NCBI RefSeq assembly: GCF_055900595.2
Contig: NZ_CM148325.1
Strand: one strand, 5' to 3'
DNA length: 64,000 nt
The notes under the pieces were generated by a model. The model was not told where the DNA came from. It was given only the letters and a program-made list of their open reading frames with translations, and did no database searches. Position numbers and translations under genes: made by a program. Position 1 is the stretch's first letter; each line of letters starts with the position of its first letter. This document shows positions 5,318 to 52,541 of this stretch, piece after piece.

Positions 5318-5911
5318 ATGAGACTGATCGTCGGGATGACAGGGGCCACCGGAGCGCCTCTTGGTGTGGCATTACTGCAAGCGCTGCGGGAGATGCCGAA
5401 TGTCGAGACTCATCTGGTGATGTCGAAGTGGGCGAAAACCACCATTGAACTGGAAACGCTTTACAACGCCCGCGATGTTGCTGCCCTCGCAGACTTCTGC
5501 CATAACCCGGCGGATCAGGCCGCAACCATCTCCTCAGGTTCCTTTCGTACCGACGGCATGATCGTTATTCCGTGCAGTATGAAAACGCTCGCCGGTATCC
5601 GCGCTGGTTACGCCGATGGCCTGGTAGGGCGCGCGGCGGACGTCGTGCTCAAAGAAGGCCGCAAACTGGTGCTGGTGCCGCGTGAAATGCCGCTTAGCAC
5701 CATCCATCTCGAAAATATGCTCGCACTTTCGCGCATGGGCGTGGCGATGGTGCCGCCGATGCCTGCCTTTTATAACCATCCCGAAACGGTAGATGACATT
5801 GTCCACCACGTGGTAGCCCGCGTGCTGGATCAATTTGGCCTCGAACATCCTCACGCCAGGCGCTGGCAAGGATTGCCGCAGGCCCGGAATTTTTCCCAGG
5901 AGAATGAATAA
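5318..5911 (+). CDS. UbiX-family flavin prenyltransferase paralogue (decarboxylase B subunit)
   Basis: 197 aa; MRLIVGMTGATGA flavoprotein motif; first gene of a three-gene operon. Confidence 0.85.
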   Translation: MRLIVGMTGATGAPLGVALLQALREMPNVETHLVMSKWAKTTIELETLYNARDVAALADFCHNPADQAATISSGSFRTDGMIVIPCSMKTLAGIRAGYADGLVGRAADVVLKEGRKLVLVPREMPLSTIHLENMLALSRMGVAMVPPMPAFYNHPETVDDIVHHVVARVLDQFGLEHPHARRWQGLPQARNFSQENE

Positions 5912-47346: not shown

Positions 47347-49977
47347 ATGAGCAAGAGCACCGCTGAGATCCGTCAGGCGTTTCTCGACTTTTTCCATAGT
47401 AAGGGACATCAGGTAGTTGCCAGCAGCTCCCTGGTACCCCATAACGACCCAACTTTGTTGTTTACCAACGCCGGGATGAACCAGTTCAAGGATGTGTTCC
47501 TTGGGCTCGACAAGCGTAATTATTCCCGCGCTACCACTTCCCAACGCTGCGTGCGTGCGGGTGGTAAACACAACGACCTGGAAAACGTCGGTTACACCGC
47601 GCGTCACCATACCTTCTTCGAAATGCTGGGCAACTTCAGCTTCGGCGACTATTTCAAACACGATGCTATTCAGTTTGCATGGGAACTGCTGACCAGCGAA
47701 AAATGGTTTGCCCTGCCGAAAGAGCGTCTGTGGGTTACCGTCTATGAAAGCGACGACGAAGCCTACGAAATCTGGGAAAAAGAAGTAGGGATCCCGCGCG
47801 AACGTATTATTCGCATCGGCGATAACAAAGGTGCGCCATACGCATCTGACAACTTCTGGCAGATGGGTGACACTGGTCCGTGTGGCCCGTGCACCGAAAT
47901 CTTCTACGATCACGGCGACCACATTTGGGGTGGCCCTCCGGGAAGTCCGGAAGAAGACGGCGATCGCTACATTGAGATCTGGAACATCGTCTTCATGCAG
48001 TTCAACCGCCAGGCCGATGGCACGATGGAACCGCTGCCGAAGCCGTCTGTAGATACCGGTATGGGTCTGGAGCGTATTGCTGCGGTGCTGCAACACGTTA
48101 ACTCTAACTATGACATTGACCTGTTCCGCACGCTGATCCAGGCAGTAGCGAAAGTCACTGGCGCGACCGATCTGAGCAATAAATCACTGCGCGTAATCGC
48201 TGACCACATTCGTTCTTGTGCGTTCCTGATCGCGGATGGCGTAATGCCGTCCAACGAAAACCGTGGTTATGTACTGCGTCGTATCATTCGTCGCGCAGTG
48301 CGTCACGGCAATATGCTCGGCGCGAAAGAAACCTTCTTCTACAAACTGGTTGGTCCGCTGATCGACGTTATGGGATCTGCAGGTGAAGACCTGAAACGCC
48401 AGCAGGCGCAGGTTGAGCAGGTGCTGAAGACTGAAGAAGAGCAGTTTGCCCGCACGCTGGAACGCGGTCTGGCGCTGCTGGACGAAGAGCTGGCGAAACT
48501 TTCTGGCGATACGCTGGATGGCGAAACTGCTTTCCGTCTGTACGACACCTACGGTTTCCCGGTTGACCTGACGGCTGATGTTTGTCGTGAACGCAACATC
48601 AAAGTTGACGAAGCTGGTTTTGAAGCAGCAATGGAAGAGCAGCGTCGTCGTGCGCGCGAAGCCAGCGGCTTTGGTGCCGATTACAACGCAATGATCCGTG
48701 TTGACAGTGCATCTGAATTTAAAGGCTATGACCATCTGGAACTGAACGGCAAAGTGACTGCGCTGTTTGTTGATGGTAAAGCGGTTGATGCCATCAATGC
48801 AGGCCAGGAAGCTGTGGTCGTGCTGGATCAAACGCCATTCTATGCGGAATCTGGCGGTCAGGTTGGCGATAAAGGTGAACTGAAAGGCGCTAACTTCTCC
48901 TTTGCGGTGGAAGATACGCAGAAATACGGCCAGGCGATTGGTCATATCGGTAAACTTGCTGCGGGTTCTCTGAAAGTGGGCGACGCGGTGCAGGCTGATG
49001 TTGATGAGGCTCGTCGCTCTCGTATTCGTCTGAATCACTCCGCAACGCACCTGATGCACGCTGCGCTGCGCCAGGTTTTGGGTACTCATGTATCGCAGAA
49101 AGGTTCACTGGTTAACGACAAAGTGCTGCGCTTCGACTTCTCACACAACGAAGCGATGAAACCAGAAGAGATTCGTGCGGTTGAAGACCTGGTGAACGCG
49201 CAGATTCGCCGTAACTTGCCGATCGAAACCAACATCATGGATCTCGAAGCGGCGAAAGCGAAAGGTGCGATGGCGCTGTTTGGCGAGAAGTATGATGAGC
49301 GCGTACGCGTGCTGAGCATGGGCGATTTCTCCACCGAGCTGTGTGGCGGTACTCACGCCAGCCGCACCGGTGATATTGGTCTGTTCCGCATCATCTCTGA
49401 ATCGGGTACTGCTGCAGGCGTTCGTCGTATCGAAGCGGTAACCGGAGAAGGCGCTATCGCCACCGTTCATGCAGACAGCGATCGCTTAAGCGAAGTCGCA
49501 CATCTGTTGAAAGGCGATAGCAATAATCTGGCTGATAAAGTGCGCTCAGTACTGGAACGTACGCGTCAGCTGGAAAAAGAGTTACAACAGCTTAAAGAAC
49601 AAGCTGCCGCACAGGAGAGCGCAAATCTTTCCAGTAAGGCAATTGATGTTAATGGTGTTAAGCTGTTGGTTAGCGAGCTTAGCGGTGTTGAGCCGAAAAT
49701 GTTGCGTACCATGGTTGACGATTTAAAAAATCAGCTGGGGTCGACAATTATCGTGCTGGCAACGGTAGCCGAAGGTAAGGTTTCTCTGATTGCAGGCGTA
49801 TCTAAGGACGTCACAGATCGTGTGAAAGCAGGGGAACTGATTGGTATGGTCGCTCAGCAGGTGGGCGGCAAGGGTGGTGGACGTCCTGACATGGCGCAAG
49901 CCGGTGGTACGGATGCTGCGGCCTTACCTGCAGCGTTAGCCAGTGTGAAAGGCTGGGTCAGCGCGAAATTGCAATAA
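47347..49977 (+). CDS. alaS: alanine--tRNA ligase
   Basis: 876 aa, class II aaRS. Confidence 0.96.
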
Positions 49978-50397: not shown

Positions 50398-50711
50398 TCT
50401 TTCCGCGTCTCATCTTTATCGGTGAGACGCACCCTCAAAATTCCTCCTTCACTCCATTTCTTTTCGCGTTATTCCCGTTCATTCAACTTAAGTCTCCATT
50501 TTTTTGCATTACTGCTATCTGTCAGACCTCCGTTTTTCTGTTGATAAAACACTCTTTTTGACGTTTTTACAGACTAATTGAGCGTGAAGTGTGCAAACGA
50601 TAAAAGTGTGGGAAAAATTGTTTGACTTATAAGTCTCAGAAAGTAATATGTGCGCCACGCAGCGACGATGAGCGATAAACAAGTTCTTCGAAGCACTCGT
50701 AAGAGGCGTGT

Positions 50712-50804
50712 GGTGAGGTGGCCGAGAGGCTGAAGGCGCTCCCCTGCTAAGGGAGTATGCGGTCAAAAGCTGCATCCGGGGTTCGAATCCCCGCCTCACC
50801 GCCA
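50712..50804 (+). tRNA. serV: tRNA-Ser (anticodon GCU)
   Basis: 93 nt with long variable arm, anticodon loop CU-GCU-AA, 3' CCA encoded. Confidence 0.93.
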
Positions 50805-50807
50805 TTT

Positions 50808-50884
50808 GCATCCGTAGCTCAGCTGGATAGAGTACTCGGCTACGAACCGAGCGGTCGGAGGTTCGAATCCTCCCGGATGCACCA
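50808..50884 (+). tRNA. argV: tRNA-Arg (anticodon ACG), copy 1
   Basis: 77 nt GCATCCGTAGCTCAGCTGGATAGAGTACTCGGCTACGAACCGAG...CACCA; 3 nt after serV. Confidence 0.93.
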
Positions 50885-50947
50885 TATTCTACGAAATCTT
50901 CAGCAATGAAGGTGTCGAAGAGGTGGCGGTACTAACCGCAAGCACCA

Positions 50948-51019
50948 GGGAGGATAACGTTGCTTTAGCAACGGCCCGAAGGGCGAGCCGTAAGGCGAGT
51001 AATCCTCCCGGATGCACCA
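50948..51019 (+). other. tRNA-like structured spacer element ending in a copy of the tRNA-Arg 3' end
   Basis: 72 nt: stem GGGAGGA...TCCTCCC, internal hairpins, terminal aatcctcccggatgcacca identical to tRNA-Arg 3' 19 nt. Confidence 0.45.
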
Positions 51020-51083
51020 TCTCTTACTTGATACGGCTTTAGTAGCGGTATCAAAAAATCTGCAGTAAAGTAAGTTTCCCGAT

Positions 51084-51160
51084 GCATCCGTAGCTCAGCT
51101 GGATAGAGTACTCGGCTACGAACCGAGCGGTCGGAGGTTCGAATCCTCCCGGATGCACCA
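51084..51160 (+). tRNA. argY: tRNA-Arg (anticodon ACG), copy 2
   Basis: 77 nt, identical to copy 1. Confidence 0.92.
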
Positions 51161-51262
51161 TATTCTCCGTAATCATCAGTGATGATGGTTAAGATGGATT
51201 TTCTTATTTGATATGGCTTTAGTAGCGGTATCAATATCAGCAGTAAAATAAGTTTTCCCGAT

Positions 51263-51339
51263 GCATCCGTAGCTCAGCTGGATAGAGTACTCGGCTACGA
51301 ACCGAGCGGTCGGAGGTTCGAATCCTCCCGGATGCACCA
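51263..51339 (+). tRNA. argZ: tRNA-Arg (anticodon ACG), copy 3
   Basis: 77 nt, identical to copy 1. Confidence 0.92.
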
Positions 51340-51549
51340 TATTCTCCGTAACCTTCAGCAATGAACGTATCGAAGAGGTAGCGGTACTAACCGCAGGCAC
51401 CATCTCCTCCAAAAAATCCCCTTCAAAAATATTTCATTTCTAAATAACTATTTTATCCATTTCCTGAATATTCTTCTCCTTCGCCATCAGCGACAAAATC
51501 AAGCAATTACGCTAAAGTAGCGTCATATTTTTCGACTTGCGAGAAGACC

Positions 51550-52116
51550 ATGTACGAGCGTTATGCAGGTTTAATTTTTGATATGGATGGCACAATCCTG
51601 GATACGGAGCCTACGCACCGTAAAGCGTGGCGCGAAGTATTAGGGCACTACGGTCTTCAGTACGATGTTCAGTCGATGATTGCGCTTAATGGCTCGCCCA
51701 CGTGGCGCATTGCTCAGGCGATTATTGAACTGAATCAGGCCGATCTCGACCCGCATGCGCTGGCGCGTGAAAAAACAGAAGCAGTCAGAAGCATGTTACT
51801 CGATAGCGTCGAACCACTCCCCCTTGTTGAAGTGGTGAAAAGCTGGCACGGACGTCGACCAATGGCTGTAGGAACGGGGAGTGAAAGCGCCATCGCTGAG
51901 GCACTGCTAACGCACCTGGGATTACGCCGTTATTTTGACGCCGTCGTTGCTGCCGATCACGTCAAACATCATAAACCTGCGCCAGACACATTTTTGTTGT
52001 GCGCGCAGCGTATGGGCGTGCAACCAACGCAGTGTGTGGTCTTTGAAGATGCTGATTTCGGTATTCAGGCGGCCCGTGCTGCAGGCATGGACGCTGTGGA
52101 TGTTCGCTTGCTGTGA
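51550..52116 (+). CDS. yqaB: HAD-family sugar phosphatase YqaB
   Basis: 188 aa with HAD motif I FDMDGTILDT. Confidence 0.9.
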   Translation: MYERYAGLIFDMDGTILDTEPTHRKAWREVLGHYGLQYDVQSMIALNGSPTWRIAQAIIELNQADLDPHALAREKTEAVRSMLLDSVEPLPLVEVVKSWHGRRPMAVGTGSESAIAEALLTHLGLRRYFDAVVAADHVKHHKPAPDTFLLCAQRMGVQPTQCVVFEDADFGIQAARAAGMDAVDVRLL

Positions 52117-52541
52117 GTGAAGCTTTATCGCTTTTCTCGTTGTTTGCCAGTAGTTTCCTCAGCGCTACACTATTACCCGGTAATTCCGAAGTCGTGCTGG
52201 TTGCAATGTTGCTTTCCGGGGTAAGTCATCCCTAGGTTTTAGTGTTAACAGCAATAATGGGTAATAGCCTTGGAGGGTTAACTAACGTTATTCTTGGGCG
52301 TTTCTTTCCATTGCGTAAAACATCGCGCTGGCAAGAGAAAGCTACTGGTTGGCTGAAACGCTATGGTGCAGTCACGCTATTATTAAGCTGGATGCCCGTG
52401 GTTGGCGATTTACTGTGTCTGTTAGCGGGATGGATGCGCATCTCCTGGGGGCCAGTAATCTTTTTTTTGTGTCTTGGTAAAGCGTTACGTTATGTTGCAG
52501 TTGCAGCAGCGACCGTTCAGGGCATGATATGGTGGCACTAA
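52113..52541 (+). pseudogene. yqaA: DedA-family inner membrane protein YqaA interrupted by in-frame amber (TAG at 52233-52235)
   Basis: GTG at 52113 opens VSEALSLFSLFASSFLSATLLPGNSEVVLVAMLLSGVSHP-TAG-VLVLTAIMGNSLGG..., continuing in the same frame into ORF 52242..52541. Confidence 0.75.

Follow-up and report, generated by a model that had tools for sequence, protein, structure and literature searches.

Probable recent loss of one tRNA-Arg gene from the serV-argV operon of an Escherichia coli strain with short RtT-type spacer units

The stretch of DNA analyzed here (the window) comprised 64,000 nucleotides (nt) of contig NZ_CM148325.1 from RefSeq assembly GCF_055900595.2. The element under study was its array of tRNA-Ser and tRNA-Arg genes, placed alaS-csrA-array-yqaB in a genome assigned to Escherichia coli. 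This array is very probably a serV-argV operon that recently lost one tRNA-Arg copy by recombination between repeats and whose spacers are short members of the RtT-type elements.

Identity and modules of the tRNA array

A query covering positions 50500-51600 was 100% identical to E. coli AST85, in which the gene order was alaS-csrA-(Ser-Arg x3)-yqaB-yqaA-gshA and RefSeq annotated one tRNA-Ser and three tRNA-Arg genes at the array. By the AST85 and K-12 annotations, csrA and yqaB flanked the array on the same strand. Within it, tRNA-Ser(GCU) was followed a few nucleotides on by tandem tRNA-Arg(ACG) genes, all three being the same 77-mer with an encoded CCA (Table 1). The gaps were 3 nt (Ser-Arg), 199 nt (50885-51083) and 102 nt (51161-51262). 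ARAGORN and Rfam thus returned exactly what a preliminary description, made from the letters of the window, had listed: Ser(GCU), Arg(ACG) 3 nt further on, and two more identical copies behind spacers of 199 and 102 nt.

The same description had named four Arg copies for K-12, as is indeed annotated in MG1655 (argV, argY, argZ and argQ, separated by 198, 62 and 198 nt). The alignment with K-12 that it had proposed confirmed that copy number and spacers differ: the window carried three copies, and the number varied from two to five within the species. The K-12 operon serV-argVYZQ (b2695-b2691) and the window shared the csrA-array-yqaB locus, identical tRNA-Ser(GCU) and tRNA-Arg(ACG) genes, the 3-nt Ser-Arg gap, and a near-identical first spacer (199 nt in the window, 198 nt in K-12). 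K-12 did not have the window's 102-nt spacer type, whereas the window had neither the 62-nt spacer nor the second 198-nt spacer of K-12. Complete RtT-like units numbered one in the window and three in K-12, and the window's tail was without the B half of the terminal RtT-like unit.

Fifteen E. coli loci were read directly, and every array was composed of a few modules: T (77 nt), which is one tRNA-Arg gene; A (~63 nt), with GCACCA at its end; B (~72 nt), a tRNA-like element that closes with a copy of the tRNA's final 19 nt; C (62-64 nt), serving as leader to the following tRNA; a* (40 nt), a diverged stub of A; and U (147 nt), a unique tail. Three spacer types were found, ABC (~198 nt), C (~62 nt) and a*C (102 nt), as well as three tail types, ABU (280 nt), AU (210 nt) and U (147 nt). 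In this notation the K-12 array reads T-ABC-T-C-T-ABC-T-ABU and the window T-ABC-T-a*C-T-AU.

Loss of one tRNA-Arg gene and its spacer

The flanks of the array alone (1.5 kb on each side) were searched against 5,425 complete E. coli genomes. Flank identity was at least 99% in 13 genomes and 99.9% in eight of those. Seven of these eight genomes spanned 3977 nt, the four-copy length; only AST85 spanned 3838 nt, as does the window. Pairwise alignment of the window with four-copy strain Z0117EC0005 over 3.8 kb showed three single-nucleotide polymorphisms (SNPs) and one 139-nt gap. The gap corresponded to one tRNA-Arg gene (T) plus one 62-nt C spacer. The sequence of the missing spacer was that of spacer 2 in K-12, and it was therefore an old spacer and not a newly made one.

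These observations support a recent 139-nt loss in which an ancestor of the form T-ABC-T-C-T-a*C-T-A-tail very probably became T-ABC-T-a*C-T-A-tail. One unequal crossover joining two of the identical tRNA genes deletes the T-C unit exactly. Adjacent identical tRNA genes may drop 139 nt and one gene copy by unequal exchange or by replication slippage; from what is established on tandem-repeat deletion in E. coli, an 87-nt identity repeated 139 nt further on should easily suffice for RecA-dependent unequal exchange as well as for RecA-independent slippage. Judged from the alignment, the exchange must fall inside 51075-51161, an interval identical in both parental contexts, so that the second Arg gene of the window would be a recombinant of ancestral copies 2 and 3.

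The direction of change follows from the modules: duplication in a three-copy array T-ABC-T-a*C-T copies only ABC or a*C and never makes a T-C unit like K-12 spacer 2, so the three-copy state is derived. Three copies as the ancestral state of the clade, with a copy gained by duplication in the seven relatives, would explain the same spans and is very unlikely. Tandem arrays do expand as well as contract (five-copy arrays exist), and RMDEC465, a slightly more distant relative, is three-copy. Against such a gain, the spacer order 199, 62, 102 nt was common to distant lineages such as AR_0006, and the next relative out, 2017-02-2CC (99.3%), had a four-copy span.

At each of the three SNPs AST85 and Z0117EC0005 agreed on the other allele, so that the differences were private to the window strain. 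Import of a whole three-copy allele from another lineage by homologous recombination has an even slimmer chance than ancestral three copies. Donors do exist, given that the same architecture occurred in genomes with flanks only ~97.5% identical. Such a donor segment would bring many substitutions, however, and no donor-type cluster was seen around the array: apart from the indel and the three private SNPs, which lay outside the array, the array and 3 kb of flanks matched the four-copy relatives.

The loss of one T-C unit by repeat recombination is thus close to what the preliminary description had proposed, and the 139-nt indel, the seven of eight four-copy relatives, and the event logic all support a contraction. 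Its idea of a rearrangement from a K-12-type array held for the four-copy ancestor and failed for the arrangement, since the ancestor combined a short, 210-nt tail with spacers of 199, 62 and 102 nt. This tail, taken there as part of the rearrangement, was an older variant shared with the unrelated strains AR_0006 and STO_Bone2.

Spacer and tail anatomy

The coordinates of all features are given in Table 1.

Table 1. Features of the tRNA array and its surroundings in the window.
Feature	Position	Strand	Description	Evidence
Candidate sigma-70 promoter	50622-50649	+	TTGACT-16 nt-TAATAT, then GC-rich GTGCGCC	Consensus scan
tRNA-Ser(GCU)	50712-50804	+	serV equivalent	ARAGORN; Rfam tRNA RF00005, 56.8 bits; AST85 annotation
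tRNA-Arg(ACG) copy 1	50808-50884	+	argV equivalent; 77 nt, encoded CCA	ARAGORN; Rfam RF00005
RtT-like unit	50885-51019	+	Modules A+B, 135 nt; directly after the tRNA CCA, pseudo-tRNA 3' end last	Rfam RF00391; core alignment; fold
tRNA-like structured element	50942-51019	+	Module B plus its 5' strand	Inverted and direct repeats; alignment; folds
Module C	51020-51083	+	64 nt; leader of next tRNA; hairpin TTGATACGG...CGGTATCAA	Repeat families; module parsing; fold
Putative crossover interval	51075-51161	+	87 nt identical in both parental contexts (TTTCCCGAT, tRNA, then T)	Alignment with four-copy relative
tRNA-Arg(ACG) copy 2	51084-51160	+	Probable recombinant of ancestral copies 2 and 3	ARAGORN; alignment with four-copy relative
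102-nt spacer	51161-51262	+	a* (51161-51200) plus module C (51201-51262); without module B	Module parsing; fold
tRNA-Arg(ACG) copy 3	51263-51339	+	Last gene; argQ equivalent	ARAGORN; Rfam RF00005
Module A'	51340-51402	+	63 nt; 5' half of RtT-like unit, B half missing; GCACCA end	Repeat match
Unique tail U	51403-51549	+	147 nt, up to the yqaB start codon (ATG at 51550)	Locus reading
Terminator-like hairpin and T run	51509-51533	+		Consensus match

Module A' and the start of spacer 1 (50885-50947) were identical at 56 of 63 positions (seven mismatches, 89%), and a repeat search joined the tRNA and the 63-nt module into a 141-nt repeat family at 95% identity. By this match the module copies are homologous repeats, with chance matching excluded. 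The preliminary description had been correct to note the repeated module, and incorrect to give it as the only sequence after the third Arg copy, where the 147-nt tail follows. Two further repeats had been overlooked: the final 19 nt of tRNA-Arg recur inside spacer 1 (AATCCTCCCGGATGCACCA; 51001-51019), and spacers 1 and 2 share another repeated module as their 3' ~62 nt. The hairpin fold of module C had weak support (z = -2.0). The a* module was a diverged and truncated A that kept a GNRA-capped hairpin, and the same 102-nt spacer was found in AR_0006, O157:H7 strain 2571, N1131, and STO_Bone2.

After the last tRNA the window had 210 nt, compared with 280 nt in K-12. Module A' abutted the unique tail directly, at a place that A+B occupies in K-12 and other strains; in HS and N1131 the 147-nt U tail stood directly after the last tRNA. 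The T/C junction is identical to the B/C junction because B ends in the tRNA 3' end. An exchange between T and B (the 19-nt tRNA 3' end and its copy) would remove A+B and leave a 62-nt spacer or a 147-nt tail, and an exchange between the GCACCA ending A and the GCACCA ending B would remove B and leave the AU tail of the window. Earlier exchanges of this kind, across shorter repeats, probably account for the other spacer and tail variants. As read from these loci, the module grammar explains all spacer and tail variants seen.

Relationship of the spacer unit to RtT RNA

The 135-nt A+B unit of spacer 1 matched the Rfam RtT model RF00391 at 30.2-33.8 bits over model positions 1-130, the 30.2-bit alignment covering 50892-51019. 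On A+B units of other E. coli strains the model scored 25-38 bits, full-length on every unit, and on the true K-12 tyrT RtT units 133-138 bits. The core of module B (AACGTTGC-TTTA-GCAACG-GCCCGAAGGGC-GAG...GAGTAATCC) aligned almost base for base both with the four tyrT units of K-12 and with the RtT consensus; the terminal ~14 nt were tRNA-Arg sequence in the Arg-operon units and tRNA-Tyr sequence at tyrT. Copies in the Arg operons of Yersinia and Serratia grimesii had a longer, tyrT-type 5' half and scored 62-74 bits, above the gathering score, and thus bridged the Arg-operon and tyrT groups. A Salmonella homologue of the core was annotated as 'RtT RNA'. On these core and model alignments the similarity of A+B to RtT is real homology, and A+B is a short member of the RtT-type elements that RefSeq leaves unannotated.

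The placement of the unit was that of RtT RNA (RF00391; rttR, in the tyrT-tyrV operon), which follows directly on a tRNA CCA and closes with a copy of that tRNA's own 3' end. Position 50885 directly followed the CCA of Arg copy 1, 51001-51019 repeated the last 19 nt of tRNA-Arg, and in other genera the pseudo-end tracked the local tRNA variant. Also shared were the core (AACGTTGC...GCAACGGCCCGAAGGG...GAGTAATCC), the layout as a minihelix with an insert, and the occurrence both between tRNA genes and behind the last of them. Units of the E. coli Arg operon differed in being shorter, with the tyrT 5' half (TTCGAC..GAGCG.CAGCGAGAG) replaced by the different module A, and in having tRNA-Arg arms in place of the tRNA-Tyr arms of tyrT RtT.

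The tyrT locus reportedly contains 178-bp tandem repeats, each with a tRNA-Tyr 3' end, as described by Egan and Landy in 1978 and by Rossi and colleagues in 1981. Both systems have partial tRNA 3' ends that form nested direct repeats driving unequal recombination and copy-number change. The tyrT repeats are stacked after the last tRNA, whereas the Arg-operon units alternate with full tRNA genes. In the K-12 tyrT locus there were four full RtT units, one of them between tyrT and tyrV.

The RtT-like family is multi-copy and tied to tRNA operons. The 135-nt unit was found in 10 places in the Klebsiella pneumoniae chromosome CP125156.1, and in five to seven in E. coli chromosomes misfiled as plasmids. 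A mobile-element origin of the RtT core (e.g., a phage att site with a tRNA 3' end) was considered and received no support from phage and plasmid searches: among 50,697 phage and 72,556 plasmid records, nearly everything that the unit matched was a misfiled chromosomal contig from Escherichia, Klebsiella, or Salmonella. A literature search on RtT, rttR and argVYZQ returned no account of RtT-like units for the Arg operon of E. coli, although older work (Komine 1990; Bosl and Kersten 1991) lay outside the search and a prior description is possible. What is added here is the explicit module grammar and the recognition of the spacer modules as short, structured, unannotated RtT relatives. Recognition of the spacers as short RtT-type elements, structured and conserved in Enterobacterales, extends the RtT family without by itself revealing its function.

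Structure and conservation of module B

Among the species surveyed, ~35 had B modules with the pseudo-tRNA 3' end in this operon; they ranged from Escherichia to Yersinia, Hafnia, Brenneria, and Pantoea stewartii. A structural alignment was made of 39 distinct copies from ~30 species. Its outer stem (50942-50955 with 51002-51015 in the window) enclosed three hairpins and mimicked the acceptor and T stems of tRNA-Arg, with acceptor-like GCACCAG/CGGATGC and T-stem GGAGG/CCTCC. Of the cells, 89.1% were paired, compared with 31-48% when partners were slid by one to three columns. Double-sided changes affected six pairs (30 cells, as against 0-6 cells in the slid controls), and the covariation score of 0.145 (shuffle mean 0.091) was reached in none of 500 shuffles. 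RNAalifold independently returned the same three inner hairpins plus one more covarying pair. The single-sequence fold of the 135-nt window unit had the same shape, with a minimum free energy of -60 kcal/mol and z = -5.6. A conserved secondary structure, as in RtT, was thus present for module B. As modelled, A+B is laid out as the acceptor/T-arm minihelix of the neighboring tRNA with a conserved insert of ~50 nt.

In seven B modules (Pseudocitrobacter, Pluralibacter and Kosakonia) A...G had changed to G...A together at alignment columns 24/41 (window 50957/50974). These positions flank the second hairpin and allow no Watson-Crick pair; the contact may be non-canonical or tertiary.

Weighing the proposed loss and RtT assignment

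Several results count against the proposed reading of the array and its spacers. The polarity of the change was derived from flank identity and event logic rather than whole-genome phylogeny. RMDEC465 (99.1% flanks) was three-copy too, which leaves room for an older or a repeated deletion. The E. coli A+B units failed the RF00391 gathering score of 45. The outer-stem covariation of module B could stem from copying of both strands from the tRNA gene instead of selection for pairing (in genera with a GGAAG/CTTCC tRNA-Arg, both B strands changed along), and only the inner hairpins were therefore counted as independent structural evidence. Promoter- and terminator-like matches were no more numerous than in shuffled sequence; the promoter call thus rests on position.

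The assembly itself is a further point of this kind, as a short 139-nt unit with identical tRNA copies could have collapsed in the window assembly. The three-copy array would then be an artefact of a true four-copy array with one tRNA and 62-nt unit folded away, which we consider improbable, if somewhat less so than ancestral three copies. Many draft assemblies of related species broke exactly at the array, a sign that it is difficult to assemble, and the four-copy state of seven of the eight closest complete genomes would fit a collapse. On the other hand, AST85 is an independently assembled complete genome with the identical three-copy array, ~10 other complete genomes had the same architecture, and the window read through the array within 64 kb of contiguous sequence. 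A true three-copy array, from which one T-C unit was lost, is the preferred reading.

Copy-number variation in E. coli and Enterobacterales

Counts by coverage threshold (179 genomes; 65 genomes) were rejected, because BLAST pieces of other architectures also reached 80% coverage; they were replaced by spans measured from the flanks and by loci read directly. Fifty-nine complete E. coli genomes, sampled at even spacing, were classed by the size of the insert between the flanks, and from each class one genome was read as its representative. The sample fell into at least 10 size classes, with the K-12 type (1143 nt) in 24 of the 59 genomes. If classes were uniform, the sample would contain ~5 three-copy, 52 four-copy, and two five-copy arrays. 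Over the complete E. coli genomes, two to five Arg copies were verified in at least 14 architectures built from few modules, the two-copy array being that of TUM13770 and of a group with similar spans.

The exact architecture of the window was collinear in ~10 complete genomes. Some of these had flanks of only ~97.5% identity, and the architecture therefore arose or spread more than once. The contraction in the window is an unremarkable allele of a tRNA array that is highly polymorphic, and was already present in RefSeq (AST85). E. coli TUM14759, whose three-copy Arg array was the same as that of the window, had an IS1 copy between alaS and csrA.

Across species, 78 loci anchored on yqaB (one per species-level genome, mostly Enterobacterales) were read. 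The array was conserved, with one to five Arg genes and spacers of 28-331 nt, and stood upstream of yqaB in ~60 species. Many draft contigs broke off at the array, upstream of yqaB by no more than a few hundred bases, and draft-based copy numbers may be underestimates. Short-read assemblies of this region thus call for caution, as they often break and may collapse at the array.

Copy number of tRNA genes is also flexible in Pseudomonas fluorescens SBW25, by tandem duplication, according to two reports (PMC7661048, PMC10954465). Both systems share recombination-type changes of dosage and variation within populations, and they differ in scale: the SBW25 duplications are large and carry whole tRNA genes, whereas the E. 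coli exchange would take place between adjacent 77-nt genes with a change of 139-275 nt.

Dosage of tRNA-Arg2

tRNA-Arg(ACG) is tRNA-Arg2, which after TadA editing of A34 to I reads CGU, CGC and CGA, including the main arginine codons. All four K-12 genes for tRNA-Arg2 (argVYZQ) are in this array, and gene number alters its level (PMC13170351); array length therefore sets tRNA-Arg2 gene dosage. Deletion of three of the four copies lowered tRNA-Arg2 ~16-fold, while duplication of the operon raised it 2.4-fold and lowered RNA editing (PMC13170351). The window strain had 25% fewer tRNA-Arg2 genes than K-12 (three-quarters of the gene dosage). The natural range of two to five copies matters for codon-usage or tRNA-supply models that are built on the K-12 gene count.

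Transcription and processing

The candidate sigma-70 promoter was the only plus-strand match between csrA and serV. This single promoter would drive tRNA-Ser(GCU) together with the Arg array, and transcription may end near the terminator-like hairpin. RNase E would cut the U/A-rich sequence after each real or pseudo CCA (ACCA/UAUUCU and ACCA/UCUCUU, the slash marking the cut) and RNase P would cut at the tRNA 5' ends, freeing the tRNAs and an RtT-like RNA of ~135 nt. By analogy with tyrT, the RtT-like unit is presumably released from the precursor by tRNA-processing nucleases. Release of the tyrT RtT from its tRNA precursor was reportedly described by Bosl and Kersten in 1991, and precursor cleavage is said to have been described by Ow and Kushner and by Li and Deutscher, both in 2002.

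The literature repeats a possible link of RtT-type RNAs to the stringent response. It is conceivable, but doubtful, that the RtT-like units, rather than being inert spacer remnants, are tRNA mimics with acceptor/T-arm minihelices fitted to the adjacent tRNA that are co-transcribed with tRNA-Arg2 in a fixed ratio and titrate a tRNA-handling factor, unit number tuning tRNA maturation or the stringent response. Titrated factors could be RNase P, the CCA-adding enzyme, TadA, or the ribosome/RelA system. If this were true, natural variation in unit number, from none in some strains through one complete unit in the window to three in K-12, would act independently of tRNA gene dosage.

Rejected matches and neighboring genes

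A minus-strand tRNA-Arg(tcg) called by ARAGORN at 50828-50899 was rejected as a mirror artefact overlapping the first true Arg gene. The weak Rfam matches to Plastid-ycf2 and Plastid-psbl-rps4 antisense to the tRNAs were likewise mirror artefacts.

Downstream of the array, codon 41 of yqaA (52233-52235) was an in-frame TAG where K-12 has Trp (...SHP*VLVL...). Position 52234 was A in the window and G (TGG) in AST85 and Z0117EC0005, making the TAG either a private nonsense allele of the window strain or a sequencing error. Single-base differences from AST85 and Z0117EC0005, which agreed with each other, were also present at 49869 (alaS) and 51891 (yqaB). Given these private differences, the window strain is a third, slightly diverged member of the clade, and no complete RefSeq genome matches it exactly over this stretch.

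The small RNA MicA was found downstream of gshA (~5630-5760, minus strand of the related loci) in all 19 loci reaching that far among the 20 scanned with Rfam, and is an expected neighbor.

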